Virus record (IMG/VR): IMGVR_UViG_2529292835_000020
Source: a virus
Lineage: Duplodnaviria; Heunggongvirae; Uroviricota; Caudoviricetes
Direction: 5' to 3' (one strand)
Length of the DNA stretch: 7,239 nt
Both the position numbers and the translations under genes were made by a program. The notes beneath the pieces are model-generated. The model was not told the origin of the DNA. It saw only the letters and a program-made list of their open reading frames with translations, and did no database searches. Positions 1-7,239 of the stretch are shown here, one piece after another (the first letter of the stretch is position 1; each line of letters begins with the position of its first letter).

Positions 1-296
1 AACACATCTCGATTTTTTGAAGCAATATGGTGATTTTGAAAATGGTATTCCTGTTCACGATACCATTGCCAGAGTTGTATCCTGTATCAGTCCTGCAAAA
101 TTTCACCAGTGCTTTATTAACTGGATGCGTGACTGCCATTCTTCAGATGATAAAGACGTCATTGCAATTGATGGAAAAACGCTCCAGCACTCTTATGACA
201 AGAGTCGCCGCAGGGGAGCGATTCATGTCATTAGTGCGTTCTCAACAATGCACAGTCTGGTCATCGGACAGATCAAGACGGATGAGAAATCTAATG
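1..296 (+). repeat. Direct repeat, identical to 6944-7239 (internal segment of the transposase gene)
   Basis: Base-by-base comparison by eye of window start and window end shows no mismatch. Confidence 0.9.
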
Positions 297-982
297 AGAT
301 TACAGCTATCCCAAAACTTCTTAACATATTGGATATTAAAGGAAAAATCATCACAACTGATGCGATGGGATGCCAGAAAGATATTGCAGAGAAGATACAA
401 AAACAGGGCGGTGATTATTTATTCGCGGTAAAAGGAAACCAGGGGCGGCTTAATAAAGCCTTTGAGGAAAAATTTCCGCTGAAAGAATTAAATAATCCAG
501 AGCATGACAGTTACGCAATGAGTGAAAAGAGTCACGGCAGAGAAGAAATCCGTCTTCATATTGTTTGCGATGTCCCTGATGAACTTATTGATTTCACGTT
601 TGAATGGAAAGGGCTGAAGAAATTATGCGTGGCAGTCTCCTTTCGGTCAATAATAGCAGAACAAAAGAAAGAGCCCGAAATGACGGTCAGATATTATATC
701 AGTTCTGCTGATTTAACCGCAGAGAAGTTCGCCACAGCAATCCGAAACCACTGGCACGTGGAGAATAAGCTGCACTGGCGTCTGGACGTGGTAATGAATG
801 AAGACGACTGCAGAATAAGAAGAGGAAATGCAGCGGAATTATTTTCAGGGATACGGCACATTGCTATTAATATTTTGACGAATGATAAGGTATTCAAGGC
901 AGGGTTAAGACGTAAGATGCGAAAAGCAGCCATGGACAGGAACTATCTGGCGTCAGTCCTTGCGGGGAGCGGGCTTTCGTAA
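1..982 (+). CDS. ISAs1-family (H-repeat-associated, DDE-type) transposase, 5'-truncated by the window edge; codons start at nt 2, stop TAA 980-982
   Basis: Open frame from the window edge to 982; provided ORF 17..982 translation (…[29 protein letters not shown]…[20 protein letters not shown]…) matches, from memory, the E. coli H-repeat proteins (YhhI/YdcC/YbfD paralogs); I cannot say which paralog. Its first 296 nt are identical to 6944-7239, the continuation of the complete 5' end seen at 6789. Confidence 0.9.
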
Positions 983-1011
983 TCTTGCCCTGGGTAGGAG
1001 GCCCTCCAGGG

Positions 1012-1464
1012 ATGTTAGTCGGTGCGGCAGTTGGAGCGGTGGTTATTGGTGGTGGTATAGTAATATACAACAATCGCGAGGCTGTTGGGGATGCGATTGA
1101 GAAAAGTATGGAGATGCGGGGTGAAGCCGAATTATTAAATGCACAAAGTCAAATGGAATTCTGGCGAGATCCCTATGGTGCTTTTTCCAGCGTGTTTGGA
1201 AATGATGATTCATCAAAAGAGAATCCAAATGTCGGGAAGGATTTGACGGATGAAGAGAAGAACTGTTTGGGCAGTGGCAGTACAGGAGGTTCGGGAGGGT
1301 GGGAGCCAGATGAGGATGGCGAAATAAGAAATACCTACAGGTCTATTAAGGATGCTCCTCAGTATCCCAGAGGGTTTAGGAATGTCCAAAATGGCACTAC
1401 AAGGAATGTTGTAAAGGATCAGCAGTTATTGAAACAATTACGTAAAGTAGATTCAGGAAAATAG
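1012..1464 (+). CDS. Hypothetical protein with N-terminal glycine-zipper-like hydrophobic segment; possible orphan toxin-like remnant; ends at amber TAG 1462-1464 but the frame stays open to TAA 1582-1584
   Basis: ATG 1012 preceded by AGGAGG 995-1000 (the ORF track's 985 start is a TTG). N-terminus MLVGAAVGAVVIGGGIVIY is hydrophobic and Gly-rich, followed by a hydrophilic body. Body is AT-rich unlike the rhs core. Function not recognised. Confidence 0.4.
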   Translation: MLVGAAVGAVVIGGGIVIYNNREAVGDAIEKSMEMRGEAELLNAQSQMEFWRDPYGAFSSVFGNDDSSKENPNVGKDLTDEEKNCLGSGSTGGSGGWEPDEDGEIRNTYRSIKDAPQYPRGFRNVQNGTTRNVVKDQQLLKQLRKVDSGK

Positions 1465-1583
1465 AGTAAAGTTTATAAAGATGGATTTGATGCGTCAGGT
1501 CGAAAAGTGTCCATTCACTATTTTGAAAGTCAGAGTGGTCGAGTATTTAATGTAAAAGTAAAACCTTATTGGAGTAATTTATA

Positions 1584-1924
1584 ATGAGAATTGATTATAG
1601 TATTAGCAATGAACACGCAGAGAAATTTATCAGTCTTTTAGTGTTGGGTGTTTTATATTCTATTGAAAAAAAGCAATATCTATAGATGAGGCAGAAGGTT
1701 TTATATTTAAGCCATCTACGTCAAAAACATTGAATGCTGCATCGCACTCTAAAAACTTAATTGACATTATAGATTCTGGTTGTGAGCTTGAAGATATATC
1801 TAGCATCATTCCTGAAAATTTATCAGGTAATATTGATAAATTAATTAACCAGACGCTGGATTTTATTCGAGGTGCTCCTGATTTTGGCGGTGCAGTCGAT
1901 AAGGAAATTATTTTAGTCAAATAA
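1584..1924 (+). pseudogene. Small gene (candidate immunity-like partner) split by a -1 frame change at an A7 tract: 1584..1685 (33 codons) continues in the -1 frame 1667..1924
   Basis: ATG 1584 overlaps the upstream TAA (TAATG) with GGAG at 1571-1574. The frame stops at TAG 1683-1685, but the -1 frame is open from 1667 to TAA 1922-1924 and has no plausible ATG of its own. One extra A in the 1666-1672 run would fuse both parts into a 113-codon ORF. Confidence 0.35.
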
Positions 1925-1958
1925 AAATATATCGTTAATATATGTTGGTGATGTTTTG

Positions 1959-1990
1959 TTGAGGGCTTTTTTATTGTTAGTGGTATAAAT
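1959..1990 (+). promoter_or_regulatory. Candidate sigma70 promoter for rhs: -35 TTGAGG (1959-1964), extended -10 TGgTATAAA (1981-1989)
   Basis: Hexamer matches in the AT-rich intergenic region upstream of the rhs RBS AGGGAG (1993-1998) and ATG 2005. The 19-nt spacer is longer than optimal. Motif-based only. Confidence 0.3.
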
Positions 1991-2156
1991 ATAAGGGAGT
2001 GAGAATGAGCGGAAAACCGGCGGCGCGGCAGGGCGACATGACCCGCAAGGGACTGGATATTGTGCAGGGTTCAGCAGGGGTGCTGATAGGCGCGCCGACG
2101 GGGGTTGCCTGCTCGGTGTGTCCTAAAAAAAGGACAGTCCAAATTATGGCAACCCG

Positions 2157-3407
2157 GTGAACCCGGTGCTGGGTGCAAAGGTGCTGCCGGGCGAGACGGA
2201 CATTGCGCTGCCCGGCCCGCTGCCGTTCATCCTTTCCCGCGCCTACAGCAGTTACCGGACCAGGACGCCCGCGCCGGTAGGGGTGTTCGGTCCCGGCTGG
2301 AAAGCGCCCTTCGATATCCGCTTACAGATACGCGATGAAGGCCTGATACTCAACGACAGCGGCGGCAGGAGCATTCACTTTGAGCCGCTGTTTCCCGGCG
2401 AGGTAAGCTACAGCCGCAGCGAGTCACTCTGGCTGGCGCGGGGCGGAGTAGCGGCGCAGCACAGTTCGCAGCCGCTAAGCGCGCTCTGGCAGGTGCTGCC
2501 GGAAGATGTTCGCCTGAGTCCGCATGTGTACCTGGCGACAAACAGCCTTCAGGGGCCGTGGTGGATACTCAGCTGGCCGGAGCGGGTGCCGGGGGCGGAC
2601 GAGGTGCTGCCGCCGGAGCCGCCCGCATACCGGGTGCTGACGGGCGTGGTGGACGGCTTCGGGCGGACGCTGACTTTCCACCGGGCGGCGGAGGGTGACG
2701 TGGCGGGCGCGGTGACGGGGGTGACGGACGGCGCGGGCCGCTGTTTTCACCTGGTGCTGACCACACAGGCGCAGCGGGCGGAAGCCTTCCGTAAACAGCG
2801 CGCCACGTCTTTATCTTCCCCTGCCGGTCCCCGTTCTGCTTCCTCTTCTTCTGCTTTCCCCGACACGCTGCCCGCCGGTACAGGATACGGTGCCGATAAC
2901 GGTATCCGGCTGGAGGCGGTGTGGCTGACACACGACCCGGCATACCCGGATGAACAGCCGACTGCGCCGCTGGCGCGCTACACGTACACGGCCAGCGGAG
3001 AACTGCGGGCGGTGTATGACCGCAGCGGGACGCAGGTTCGCGGGTTTACTTATGATGCGGAGCACGCCGGGCGGATGGTGGCGCACCATTATGCGGGGAG
3101 GCCGGAGAGCTGCTACCGGTATGATGATACCGGTCGGGTGACGGAGCAGGTCAACCCGGAGGGGCTGGACTACCGCTTTGAGTACGGAGAGAGCCGGGTA
3201 ATCATCACGGACAGCCTGAACCGGCGGGAGGTGCTGTACACGGAAGGCGAGGGTGGCCTGAAGCGGGTGGTGAAGAAGGAGCATGCCGACGGGAGCATCA
3301 CCCGCAGCGAGTATGATGAGGCGGGGAGGCTGAAGGCGCAGACGGATGCGGCGGGGCGGCGGACGGAGTACCGGCTGCATATGGCGTCGGGTGCGGTGAC
3401 GCGGTGA
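2157..3407 (+). CDS. Rhs N-terminal core fragment (a gene caller would report this segment of the rhs pseudogene as a separate CDS)
   Basis: ORF-track frame; translation aligns with the Rhs N-terminal region as I recall it (NPV-GAKVLPGETD-ALPGPLPFILSR-YSSYRT…). Not an independent gene. Confidence 0.5.
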   Translation: MNPVLGAKVLPGETDIALPGPLPFILSRAYSSYRTRTPAPVGVFGPGWKAPFDIRLQIRDEGLILNDSGGRSIHFEPLFPGEVSYSRSESLWLARGGVAAQHSSQPLSALWQVLPEDVRLSPHVYLATNSLQGPWWILSWPERVPGADEVLPPEPPAYRVLTGVVDGFGRTLTFHRAAEGDVAGAVTGVTDGAGRCFHLVLTTQAQRAEAFRKQRATSLSSPAGPRSASSSSAFPDTLPAGTGYGADNGIRLEAVWLTHDPAYPDEQPTAPLARYTYTASGELRAVYDRSGTQVRGFTYDAEHAGRMVAHHYAGRPESCYRYDDTGRVTEQVNPEGLDYRFEYGESRVIITDSLNRREVLYTEGEGGLKRVVKKEHADGSITRSEYDEAGRLKAQTDAAGRRTEYRLHMASGAVTR

Positions 3408-3905
3408 CGGGGCCGGACGGCAGGACGGTACGGTATGGCTATAACAGCCAGCGGCAGGTGACGTCAGTGACGTACCCGGACGGGCTTCGCAGCAGCCGGG
3501 AGTATGATGAGAGGGAAGGCTGACGGCGGAGACCTCGCGCAGCGGTGAGACAACGCGGTACAGCTATGATGACCCGGCGAGTGAGCTGCCGACAGGGATA
3601 CAGGACGCGACGGGCAGTACAAAACAGATGGCATGGAGCCGTTACGGTCAACTGCTGGCCTTCACGGACTGCTCGGGGTACACGACGCGGTATGAGTACG
3701 ACCGGTACGGTCAACAAATCGCCGTTCACCGGGAAGAAGGCATCAGCACTTACAGCAGTTATAACCCGCGTGGCAACTGGTCAGTCAGAGGGATGCGCAG
3801 GGGCGGGAGACCCGTTATGAGTACAGCGCCGCAGGCGACCTGACAGCGACGATATCACCGGACGGTAAACGCAGCACCATCGAATATGATAAACGCGGGC
3901 GTCCG

Positions 3906-4613
3906 GTGAGTGTGACGGAAGGCGGTCTGACGCGCAGCATGGGGTATGACGCTGCCGGGCGCATCACTGTGCTGACCAACGAGAACGGCAGCCAGTCCAC
4001 GTTCCGGTATGACCCGGTCGACAGGCTGACGGAGCAGCGTGGCTTTGATGGCAGGACGCAACGTTACCAGTATGACCTGACCGGAAAACTCACGCAGAGT
4101 GAAGATGAGGGGCTTATCACCCTCTGGCACTACGATGCGTCGGACCGCATCACCCGGCGCACGGTGAACGGCGACCCGGCGGAGCAGTGGCAGTATGATG
4201 AACACGGGTGGCTAACCACCATCAGCCATACCAGTGACGGCCACCGAGTGTCGGTCCACTACGGCTATGACGATAAAGGCCGCCTGACGGGCGAACGGCA
4301 GACGGTGGAGAACCCGGAGACGGGGGAGATGCTGTGGGAGCATGAGACGGGGCATGCGTACAGCGAACAGGGGCTGGCGACCCGTCAGGAGCCGGACGGC
4401 CTGCCGCCGGTGGAGTGGCTGACGTATGGCAGCGGTTATCTTGCGGGGATGAAGCTGGGCGGAACGCCACTGGTCGAGTACACGCGGGACCGGCTGCACC
4501 GTGAGACGGTGCGCAGCTTCGGCGGTGGCAGGCCTGATGAAGCTTGCCACCGCCTGGACATACACCCTCACAGGGCAGCTACAGAGCAGGCACCTGAACC
4601 TCCCGCAGCTTGA
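3906..4613 (+). CDS. Rhs central core fragment with YD repeats (segment of the rhs pseudogene)
   Basis: ORF-track frame; YD-repeat content ([18 protein letters not shown]); homologous frame actually opens at about 3765. Confidence 0.45.
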
Positions 4614-6240
4614 CCGGGACTACGACTGGAACGACAACGGACAGCTAATCCGCATCAGCGGCCCGCAGGAGAGCCGGGAGTACCGTTACAGTGACACGGG
4701 AAGGCTGACGGGCGTCCACACCACGGCGGCGAACCTGGATATCGATATCCCGTATGCGACGAACCCGGCAGGAAACCGGCTGCCGGACCCGGAACTGCAC
4801 CCGGACAGCACCCTCACGGCGTGGCCGGATAACCGCATCGCGGAAGATGCGCACTATGTCTACCGCTACGATGAATACGGCAGGCTGGCGGAGAAGACGG
4901 ACCGCATCCCGGAAGGGGTGATACGGATGCACGACGAGCGGACCCACCACTACCACTACGACAGCCAGCACCGTCTGGTGTTCTACACGCGGATACAGCA
5001 CGGTGAGCCGCAGGTGGAGAGCCGCTACCTCTATGACCCGCTGGGCCGCCGGACGGGAAAACGGGTGTGGCGGCGGGAGCGTGACCTGACGGGGTGGATG
5101 TCGCTGTCGCGTAAACCGGAGGAGACATGGTACGGGTGGGACGGTGACAGGCTGACGACGATACAGACCGGCACCACGCGTATCCAGACGGTGTACCAGC
5201 CGGGGAGCTTCACGCCGCTCCTGAGAATCGAAACAGAGAATGGCGAACAGGCGAAGGCGCGGCACCGTAGCCTGGCGGAGGTGTTGCAGGAGGACACGGG
5301 TGTGACGCTACCGGCGGAGCTGGCGGTGATGCTGGGGAGGCTGGAGCGGGAACTGCGCGCGGGAGCGGTGAGTGCGGAGAGTGAGGCATGGCTTGCGCAG
5401 TGCGGGCTGACGGCGGAACAGATGGCCGCGCAGATGGAGGCGGAATACATCCCGGAGAGGAAACTTCATCTTTACCACTGTGACCACCGTGGACTGCCGC
5501 AGGCGCTCATCACCCCGGAAGGCGAAACGGCGTGGTGCGGGGAGTATGACGAGTGGGGGAACCAGCTTAATGAGGAGAACCCGCATCACCTGTACCAGCC
5601 GTACCGTTTGCCGGGGCAGCAGTATGATGAGGAGTCGGGACTGTATTACAACCGTCACCGGTACTACGATCCGTTGCAGGGGCGGTATATCACCCAGGAT
5701 CCGATAGGGTTGAAGGGGGGAATAAATCTATACACGTATCCACTGGCACCAATACGTTACACTGATCCACTGGGGTTAGAACGAGTTATAAGTGTATATG
5801 GGCCTCCCGCTCCAGACCGGGCAGGTGCTGAAACTCCTCTTGTTCTTACTGATATGACTGGAGGAGTGACTATTTATTATGATCCTGAAACAGGTGATTC
5901 AATGACTTTTGATAGTAGCAATAGAATTGATCGTCGTTCTCAACGTGGTGCTGGTGATCCATATACAGGTGAAGTCGTTGGTTGTGAGACAAATGAATCA
6001 GGAATATCGGCAGCATATGGCACAACGAAGATCTATACTACAGATACTAGAGCAAGATGGCTACATGGTGGGGGATCATCGTTGCGCGATCCTTATGCTC
6101 CTCGACAAGGCTGGAAACCAACTATGGGATGTACCCGTGCACAGAATGAAGATGTAGATGAGTTGTGTAAGAAAGTGACAAGTTGGATGTATTCGCATCC
6201 TGGAGAGAGAATTAGATATGAACGTTTTAAGACACGTTAA
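4501..6240 (+). CDS. Rhs C-terminal core plus toxin tip (longest intact segment of the rhs pseudogene)
   Basis: 579-codon open frame containing YD repeats, DPLGL (5764-5778) and the 153-codon C-terminal domain; stop TAA 6238-6240. Confidence 0.55.
5779..6237 (+). other. Rhs C-terminal toxin domain, putative L,D-transpeptidase (YkuD) fold
   Basis: Begins immediately after DPLGL. Contains WLHGGG (His codon 6064-6066) and, about 22 residues later, [17 protein letters not shown] (Cys codon 6130-6132), resembling the YkuD His … (S/T)xGC(I/V)Rx-N-D…L active-site signature. Composition switches to AT-rich. Confidence 0.5.
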
Positions 6241-6610
6241 TGCGATTAACATGGGAGTGTGCATTCTAATTTTGGTTATTGGATGTGCAAATGCTAAAGT
6301 TCTTAAACGATGTATATTACCCGCTCCTGATGGTGGCGTAGAAAAACTATCAAAACCCAACTTACATGGAGTAATTAAAAAAGTTGATTTGAACACAAAT
6401 GAAGCGGAAATTAAAATAAAAGAGGGGGGGGCAGTGAGTTTTATTTTTAATGAGGAAACATTGTATTTTACTGTTTTTGGTGGGGATTTTATTATGGATG
6501 ATTTAAAAAAAGTAAAAAATACGGAAGCATGGGTATGGTATAAAAATTGCGATAGTAAAAATAAAAATGTGGCAGTTGAACTTCTTCAAATCTACGAATT
6601 GCATCAATGA
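6218..6610 (+). CDS. Predicted lipoprotein or exported small protein; candidate cognate immunity protein of the Rhs C-terminal toxin
   Basis: ATG 6218 overlaps the last codons of rhs (stop 6238-6240). N-terminus [23 protein letters not shown] has a positive n-region, hydrophobic core and lipobox-like VIGC (AXA-like ANA follows). AT-rich; stop TGA 6608-6610. Position matches Rhs immunity genes. Confidence 0.65.
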
Positions 6611-6650
6611 AAAATATAGTTAAATAGAGGAGGTTATTAATAGCAGGAAA

Positions 6651-6674
6651 AGCATCACGTGATGCTGATTTTTT
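6651..6674 (+). terminator. Candidate intrinsic terminator: palindrome AGCATCACGTGATGCT followed by T6
   Basis: Perfect 16-nt palindrome at 6651-6666 (about 6-bp stem, 4-nt loop) followed by TTTTTT at 6669-6674, 41 nt after the 6610 stop. Stem is short and only moderately GC-rich. Confidence 0.4.
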
Positions 6675-6788
6675 GCACTAAATAATTCGCATTTTATGTT
6701 TAAAAATTGAGATATTCCTTATTACCTAAAGCTGTTTTTTATTGCTTATACATGATCAAATACTCCTTACATAATTAAGGAGAACAAA

Positions 6789-7239
6789 ATGGAACTTAAA
6801 AAATTGATGGAACATATTTCTATTATCCCCGATTACAGACAAGCCTGGAAAGGGGAGCATAAATTATCGGATATTCTACTGTTAACTATTTGTGCCGTTA
6901 TTTCTGGTGCAGAGGGTTGGGAAGATATAGAGGATTTTGGGGAAACACATCTCGATTTTTTGAAGCAATATGGTGATTTTGAAAATGGTATTCCTGTTCA
7001 CGATACCATTGCCAGAGTTGTATCCTGTATCAGTCCTGCAAAATTTCACCAGTGCTTTATTAACTGGATGCGTGACTGCCATTCTTCAGATGATAAAGAC
7101 GTCATTGCAATTGATGGAAAAACGCTCCAGCACTCTTATGACAAGAGTCGCCGCAGGGGAGCGATTCATGTCATTAGTGCGTTCTCAACAATGCACAGTC
7201 TGGTCATCGGACAGATCAAGACGGATGAGAAATCTAATG
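6789..7239 (+). CDS. ISAs1-family (H-repeat-associated) transposase, complete 5' end, 3'-truncated by window edge
   Basis: ATG 6789 preceded by AAGGAG (6777-6782). Translation [67 protein letters not shown]… runs to the window end with no stop; 6944-7239 is identical to 1-296. Confidence 0.9.
6944..7239 (+). repeat. Direct repeat, identical to 1-296
   Basis: Same comparison as for 1-296. Confidence 0.9.

Follow-up and report, generated by a model that had tools for sequence, protein, structure and literature searches.

The closest described relatives of the locus considered here are the RHS element core genes of Escherichia coli, which occur at the RhsE locus and in a form linked to VgrG and a type VI secretion system (T6SS), and which are exemplified by the proteins WP_216349489.1 and, from strain 120899, WP_126123763.1. 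The end of the conserved Rhs core is defined by a PxxxxDPxGL motif (PMC3150448), and Rhs loci are known to undergo displacement of the C-terminal region and to carry orphan rhs-CT/rhsI modules (Poole et al., 2011, PMC3150448). The stretch of DNA analysed here, IMG/VR record IMGVR_UViG_2529292835_000020 (7,239 nucleotides (nt) at full length, hereafter the window), is the entire contig AQEA01000005.1 (7,239 bp) of the draft assembly GCA_000354775.2 of E. coli 2747800, and most of it is occupied by an rhs coding region with the same architecture as these core genes. As deposited, this region is interrupted by five frame-changing lesions. Lesions 2 to 5 are very probably consensus errors of a collapsed repeat, which arose when assembly fused several almost identical rhs copies from a single E. 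coli genome; a shortened adenine tract (A7) at the 5′-end of the gene belongs to a different class. Misassembly of this kind with consensus errors is a general artefact of draft genomes. The locus itself is an ordinary Rhs polymorphic-toxin element of E. coli, with ISAs1 H-repeats on its flanks, and holds no new biology.

Rhs identity and placement of the lesions

The coding region consists of six segments (2005-2160, 2157-3407, 3404-3523, 3511-3843, 3765-4613 and 4501-6240), none of which contains an internal stop codon and each of which ends at one. The segments are read in frames 0, 2, 1, 0, 2 and 0, respectively, and the first and last therefore share a frame over a span of 4236 nt. A preliminary description, made by a model from the letters and open reading frames (ORFs) alone, had reported this path through the frames, its length and its net-zero shift, and translation of each segment confirmed that all three are real in the deposited sequence. 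Rhs-type content (PAAR-like, DUF6531, RHS_repeat and RHS) is present in all six segments. Pfam searches with the fragments returned a weak PAAR_motif (E 0.0025), DUF6531 (9.6e-17) and, in three fragments, RHS_repeat, so that the N-terminal organization of an Rhs protein, in which a PAAR-like region and DUF6531 are followed by YD repeats, was found. At the other end of the gene, the RHS-associated core closes with the full PxxxxDPxGL motif at 5749-5778, after which the GC content falls from ~0.65 to ~0.45, and a variable tip follows that is unlike the tips of two homologous loci (L005 and L013). The intact homologue at locus L002 scores 2626 bits against the NCBIfam model NF041261 (RHS_core), the cutoff being 2000. 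A single ORF of ~1400 codons does not exist in the deposited sequence, which gives six ORF fragments, and appears only after five repairs: when the lesions are undone by restoring four bases and removing four (net change 0 nt), a stop-free ORF of 1411 codons is obtained, the product of which matches the intact protein of L002 (WP_216349489.1, strain LSN03-016011/A) along its whole length with 96.5% identity.

The lesions were placed by nucleotide alignment with intact homologues, namely L002:5279-9520, which has the same tip, L005:2122-6387, L013:4634-8896 and the VgrG-linked main gene of 120899 (L011). The same four 1-nt deletions appeared in the window against these intact homologues. The alignment supports the positions proposed earlier for the lesions, but not the types of two of them, the supposed changes of +8 and +1 being wrong in kind and right only modulo 3. 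An 8-nt gain at 3393-3408 was rejected because intact genes natively hold both GCGGTGAC units, spaced 9 nt and coding for AVTAVT; between the two GCGGTGAC units the window lacks one base, and the real lesion is a loss of 1 nt at 3401. Similarly, a single inserted base at 4521-4525 was rejected because the resulting reading matches no recovered type of the variable patch in which it lies. This patch, located between the conserved sequences RETVRSFG and YT..GQLQS, varies in length among rhs paralogs and exists in at least three types. Removal of four bases at the patch yields FGGEACELATAW, a reading that exists elsewhere, and relative to the closest patch type the window carries four separate 1-nt insertions (net +4, equal to +1 modulo 3). 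That type is the main-gene patch of strains 120899 and NCTC8623, GGGGAGGCCTGTGAACTTGCC (coding for GEACELA), to which T, C, A and G have been added, and each of the four inserted bases is the base of the RhsE-type patch in the same alignment column. The repaired patch reading, SFGGEACELATAW, is present in other E. coli proteins (P0018).

Two further observations concern the patch. Many partial Rhs proteins (P0018-P0025 and P0028) stop exactly there, with endings such as …GGEA, …GGEAV and …GGEACEL in the context SFGGE; short-read assemblies therefore fork at this point, which is a routine contig break between rhs paralogs. In the locus L010 (SUML01000006.1, 1-12582, on a 460-kb scaffold), which was used for its patch DNA only, hcp, vgrG, rhs and ISAs1 are all split into small ORFs. 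This points to an unpolished, error-rich long-read assembly, fragments of which are also found in the protein database.

Cyclic ends and paralog composition of the contig

Bases 1-296 of the window are identical to bases 6944-7239 (296/296) and lie within ISAs1, so that the contig amounts in effect to a 6,943-nt circle; other ISAs1 copies of the reference loci differ from these ends by ~2-5%. In NCTC8623 (L001), window 3189-7239 corresponds to L001 3001-7044, window 1-4318 matches L001 6749-11070, and the two map positions have exactly 296 nt in common, all of them in a single ISAs1 copy. Hence the contig represents a linear stretch of genome, cyclically permuted, in which the order is the 3′-part of an rhs gene, its tip, the immunity gene, ISAs1, a hypothetical ORF, the DUF3969 ORF and the 5′-part of the next rhs gene. 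The same cyclic relation and order are seen in 120899 (L007), where the upstream gene is an intact VgrG-linked rhs. An end overlap of 296 nt hints at an overlap-layout assembler and not at a k-mer graph.

Paralog types were assigned from a mismatch map, per 100 nt, against the three rhs paralogs of 120899. From 1900 to ~3300 the window is of the type of the paralog with the A7 tract (0-1 mismatch per 100 nt), from ~4000 to 5100 it is of the RhsE-locus type, interrupted by the main-type patch, and between 5124 and 7239 it is entirely (100%) of the type of the VgrG-linked main gene. All private lesions fall within 3401-4548, where the paralogs are most alike. Both features to be expected of an assembly artefact in a repeat were found, since the sequence is multi-copy and the contig is cyclic through a repeat: in complete E. 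coli genomes, the number of places per genome that match the window has a median of 8. At least 80% of the window is covered in one place in 968 of 5,426 complete E. coli genomes, with a best identity of 97-98%.

In the proposed model, the true genome would likely be ordered as in 120899 and NCTC8623, with vgrG, an intact main rhs bearing this tip, the immunity gene and ISAs1, followed by the hypothetical ORF, DUF3969 and a second rhs gene with the A7 frameshift. The assembler would have closed a loop through the shared core of 65% GC and thereby produced a cyclic contig, in which the composite gene would have taken its 5′-end from the A7 paralog and its 3′-end from the main gene, with a mixture between them. 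Where reads of different paralogs disagreed, the consensus would then have dropped columns without a majority base, to give the three private 1-nt deletions, and, by settling on the base wherever a base competed with a gap, would have kept the bases of both paralogs in the length-variable patch, to give the four 1-nt insertions. A chimera of whole genes is unneeded to explain the gene order, which is intact in L002, and is retained only as the likeliest origin of the contig.

Lesions at paralog-variable positions

The three private deletions and four private insertions (seven bases) are essentially confined to this contig. The 61-mers that span 3401 and 3772 were found in none of the 5,426 complete genomes, and the 61-mer that spans 3512 in one only, MY732, in a different VgrG-linked rhs gene that is already flagged as frameshifted. 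The patch had no match above 90% in the same genomes, and its 27-mer core had no exact match among GTDB species representatives; a novel natural patch type was no longer considered once the patch proved to be made of main-type and RhsE-type bases. The fragment proteins of 416, 233 and 567 amino acids (aa) are recorded on AQEA01000005.1 alone. As a side observation, the VgrG-linked rhs of MY732 (L006, NZ_AP026907.1, 3532-7756, a RefSeq 'complete' genome) carries two 1-nt deletions, one of which is the same loss as at 3512 of the window, in a column that varies among paralogs; the polishing of a finished genome may have introduced it, or it may reflect a real hot spot.

The columns at which bases were lost were examined in a MAFFT alignment of nine paralogs (2,344 core columns). 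Only 11 of the 2,344 columns (0.47%) are tri-allelic, and the columns lost at 3401 and 3773 are both among them. By chance, two out of three private deletions would land on such columns with a probability of ~7e-5, and the third deletion removes a variable A/C column. The patch is the column-wise union of the main-type and RhsE-type alleles. Thus, what would be expected of errors made when repeat copies are merged was observed, namely errors where the copies differ and a hybrid sequence of two copies.

Real recent decay, the first of the two readings offered in the preliminary description, would require that a single full-length rhs gene was inactivated by the A7 slip and later acquired three more 1-nt deletions together with a scrambled patch, so that the tip and the immunity gene would persist as a silent cassette. 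Disrupted rhs genes are indeed annotated in complete genomes (with A7 only in L008, with A7 and a 587-nt deletion in L001 and L007, and with an internal stop in strain G3/10), the same architecture is intact in L002, and the window contains no large deletion. However, the seven private indel bases stand against no private substitution outside the patch in 7,239 nt, every base being found in at least one paralog of the panel, and the private substitutions or nonsense codons that would accompany indels in a pseudogene are absent from the window, the repaired ORF being free of stops. In E. coli mutation-accumulation experiments, indels are roughly a tenth as frequent as base substitutions. A history of some four private indel events accompanied by no more than one or two substitutions is therefore improbable under decay (P around 0.001-0.02). 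Moreover, neutral deletions have no reason to fall on tri-allelic columns of the paralogs, nor neutral insertions to copy the bases of another paralog column by column. Lesions shared with relatives or with independent assemblies were found for A7 only, and the absence of the losses at 3401 and 3772 from complete genomes likewise speaks against decay, which is an unlikely explanation for the gene as a whole. The second reading, assembly or sequencing indels, is supported for four of the five lesions, and decay for A7 alone.

The same pattern in an unrelated draft assembly also argues against decay. In E. coli P0304816.7 (AQBE01000002.1, L014), a T6SS region extends from tssBC through hcp and vgrG to a VgrG-linked rhs. 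Over the 4.5 kb of unique T6SS sequence, one intergenic indel separates it from 120899, and the first 1.57 kb of the rhs gene contain one mismatch and no indel. Beyond 1.57 kb, where the core is shared with paralogs, six small deletions (7 nt in total) and rising numbers of mismatches appear. The damage starts in a stretch that is hypervariable among paralogs, one deletion lies in the same patch as in the window, and the deleted columns are paralog-variable in four of seven cases, compared with a background of 16%. The rhs of this assembly (L014 6098-9165) ends ~3 kb into the gene, and its mixed-type sequence has given rise to the database fragments ENF65120.1 and ENF58208.1.

Random platform errors, such as the under-calling of homopolymers by 454, Ion Torrent or early long-read sequencing, in a correctly assembled single gene are a more specific form of the error reading. 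Each of the four 1-nt deletions can be assigned to a homopolymer run, 2-8 bases in length, and the end overlap may suggest an overlap-layout assembler supplied with longish reads. Three of the four runs are, however, just 2-3 nt long, and the AT-rich flanks, with their longer runs, and ~3.5 kb of non-core sequence are free of indels against the best references. Random errors would not pick out paralog-variable columns, and four insertions within ~20 nt that match another paralog would be left unexplained. This explanation is accordingly held to be very improbable.

Several points weigh against the interpretation of lesions 2 to 5 as products of a collapsed repeat. The errors are inferred and were not seen in reads, a literature search on strain 2747800 for the platform and assembler of the project returned irrelevant matches only, and the tri-allelic criterion was chosen after the alignment had been seen. 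The order ISAs1, hypothetical ORF, DUF3969, rhs with this tip, immunity gene and ISAs1 exists intact in complete genomes, for example in L002; rhs paralogs recombine naturally, so that a mosaic pattern alone is no proof of misassembly; and collapsed ISAs1 copies could also give identical contig ends. Finally, the recurrence of the 3512 loss in MY732, a RefSeq 'complete' genome, could mean a real mutational hot spot. If all lesions were real, strain 2747800 would carry a full-length rhs in which five frame changes cancel out and deletions are aimed at differences between paralogs; error-prone gene conversion or heteroduplex repair between rhs copies, with indels made at mismatches, might then be at work. 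Separately, slippage at the A7/A8 tract could act as a switch that toggles delivery of Rhs while the tip and the immunity gene persist. Such a reading is considered unlikely.

The A7 tract

In contrast to lesions 2 to 5, the change from A8 to A7 is most likely a real, widespread and already annotated frameshift allele, and the only likely real lesion in the window. The tract lies directly behind the PAAR-like region. Of the 576 complete genomes with this N-terminus, 73 contain the exact 66-mer with A7, and the resulting N-terminal fragment of 51 aa is recorded on 647 contigs. The allele is found in two rhs contexts, a T6SS-linked paralog with a 587-nt deletion (L001 and L007) and a full-length gene at the RhsE locus (L008), in the latter as the sole lesion. 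Given how widespread A7 is as a natural frameshift allele, the cancelling of the frame changes to zero is most likely a coincidence and not a sign of a recently intact ancestor.

The length of the tract, with both A7 and A8 occurring, varies as would be expected of a phase-variable or programmed frameshift site, and it differs among strains and rhs contexts. It might thus be supposed that slippage between A7 and A8, or a -1 frameshift site, controls Rhs, and that the downstream frame changes are tolerated or compensated. The run is followed by the rare codon AGG, at which, judging from the sequence, a -1 slip with A7 would restore the frame, and the stop of the 51-aa fragment overlaps the GTG that opens the next ORF (GTGA, 2157-2160). 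Nevertheless, there is no evidence of switching within a strain, tracts of seven or eight adenines are short for efficient slippage, PGAP labels the A7 genes as pseudogenes, and lesions 2 to 5 would still break the frame, each creating a stop. Recoding or phase variation is hence regarded as extremely unlikely, and A7 is better read as a frameshift allele.

Layout of the contig and the flanking module

The features of the window are listed in Table 1. The GC content of the rhs region is 0.60-0.70, compared with 0.29-0.47 in the flanks.

Table 1. Position, strand and supporting evidence of the features of contig AQEA01000005.1.
Feature	Coordinates	Strand	Evidence
ISAs1-family (H-repeat) transposase gene, 3′-part	1..982	+	Pfam DDE_Tnp_1 (1.5e-30); ISAs1 annotated in homologous loci
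Conserved hypothetical ORF, 150 aa	1012..1464	+	Called gene; always follows the ISAs1 copy of the module
DUF3969 family ORF, 64 aa	1730..1924	+	Pfam PF13108 (1.1e-7); identical annotation in all homologous loci
Composite rhs coding region	2005..6240	+	Mismatch map against three rhs paralogs of 120899; repaired ORF of 1411 aa
Lesion 1: A7 where intact genes have A8 (-1)	2125..2131	+	Alignment
Lesion 2: -1; missing column is T, G or A among rhs paralogs	3400..3401	+	Alignment
Lesion 3: -1; missing column is A/C and next column A/G among paralogs	3511..3512	+	Alignment
Lesion 4: -1; missing column is C, T or G among paralogs	3771..3773	+	Alignment
Lesion 5: garbled variable patch, 25 nt	4524..4548	+	Main-gene patch GGGGAGGCCTGTGAACTTGCC plus four inserted bases
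DPLGL of the PxxxxDPxGL motif, end of conserved Rhs core	5764..5778	+	Translation; Pfam RHS (4.9e-13)
Variable C-terminal toxin tip, intact	5779..6240	+	No mismatch to the tip of the intact main rhs of 120899
Presumed immunity gene, 130 aa	6218..6610	+	Position; ORF overlaps the rhs stop by 23 nt
ISAs1, 5′-part, of the same copy in which the contig begins	6789..7239	+	Called gene with DDE_Tnp_1_assoc

Upstream of this rhs N-terminus, window 985-1924 belongs to a fixed module composed of ISAs1, a glycine-rich hypothetical ORF of ~150 aa and a DUF3969 ORF of 64 aa. The module was seen in every locus examined (L001, L002, L005, L007, L008 and L013), and it occupies both the RhsE site (pptA/nhoA) and the T6SS site (yafV). 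Homologues of the ORF at 1012-1464 (WP_000960005/9) are annotated as hypothetical protein in the same six loci, and the ORF had no match in Pfam or NCBIfam. The glycine-rich ORF and the DUF3969 ORF could be an orphan toxin/immunity pair that is carried with the H-repeat.

Toxin tip and immunity gene

The preliminary description had held that the tip and the immunity gene downstream of the lesions are intact, and this agrees with the complete identity of 5124-7239 to the rhs 3′-end, immunity gene and ISAs1 of 120899. The tip has a sub-threshold match to Pfam YkuD (E 6.6e-4, 20.7 bits against a cutoff of 23.4) with an HGGG...GCTR motif, and in strain G3/10 the same tip occurs as a separate ORF that PGAP names 'L,D-transpeptidase family protein'. 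Because searches of PDB sequences and NCBIfam returned nothing significant for the tip or for the immunity protein, the tip is only tentatively read as L,D-transpeptidase-like. The 130-aa ORF that follows it is presumed from its position to be the cognate immunity gene; it follows this tip in L001, L002, L003 and L007, and the exact protein is present on at least 1000 contigs. Its product has an N-terminal lipobox-like sequence (LVIGC) and a weak match to DUF4367. Taken together, these features tentatively suggest a periplasmic toxin directed at peptidoglycan, with a lipoprotein as its immunity partner.

The real genome most likely has the tip and the immunity gene attached to an intact VgrG-linked rhs, or else to an orphan 3′-fragment like that of NCTC8623. 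If the contig is chimeric, the tip would be part of an intact, expressed gene and not a silent cassette behind a broken one.

Comparison with known Rhs loci

Draft assemblies can produce spurious rhs 'pseudogenes' with multiple frameshifts, as well as chimeras, because the Rhs core is present in several GC-rich copies that hardly differ between loci. Artefact fragments of this kind enter the protein databases (EMW81496.1, EMW81497.1 and the fragments of P0304816.7), where they can be mistaken for signs of gene decay or for silent toxin cassettes. For calls of pseudogenes in repeat families, a test that requires no reads is available, namely whether the lesions fall on paralog-variable columns and whether a scrambled patch is the union of two paralogs.

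The biology of the locus has been described before: a toxin of the Rhs type, its immunity gene, flanks of ISAs1 and a common A7 frameshift allele. With the RHS element core genes the window shares its architecture, and its 3′-terminal 2.1 kb are identical to the locus of 120899, but it differs from them in having four 1-nt deletions, a hybrid patch, three paralog types and ends that close on one ISAs1. The natural A7 pseudogenes CXW56_RS28485 (120899), EL131_RS25020 (NCTC8623) and BWI84_RS17100 (13KWH46) have the identical A7 tract and the same upstream module of ISAs1, hypothetical ORF and DUF3969, and window 1900-3300 shows at most one difference per 100 nt from the A7 copies of 120899 and NCTC8623. 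These pseudogenes carry A7 alone, or they combine A7 with a 587-nt deletion and a small number of further indels close to the tip, and they have neither the losses at 3401 and 3772 nor the patch of the window. The silent cassette proposed earlier corresponds to the orphan rhs-CT/rhsI arrangement (PMC3150448), and in NCTC8623 the same tip and immunity gene are indeed found on an N-terminally truncated rhs fragment downstream of the main rhs. Unlike such orphan modules, the broken full-length gene of the window is best explained by assembly, and the same tip is carried by the intact VgrG-linked gene of 120899. With collapsed-repeat misassembly, finally, the window has in common a multi-copy sequence, a cyclic contig bounded by a repeat, errors at the columns where the copies differ and a hybrid sequence that is found nowhere else.

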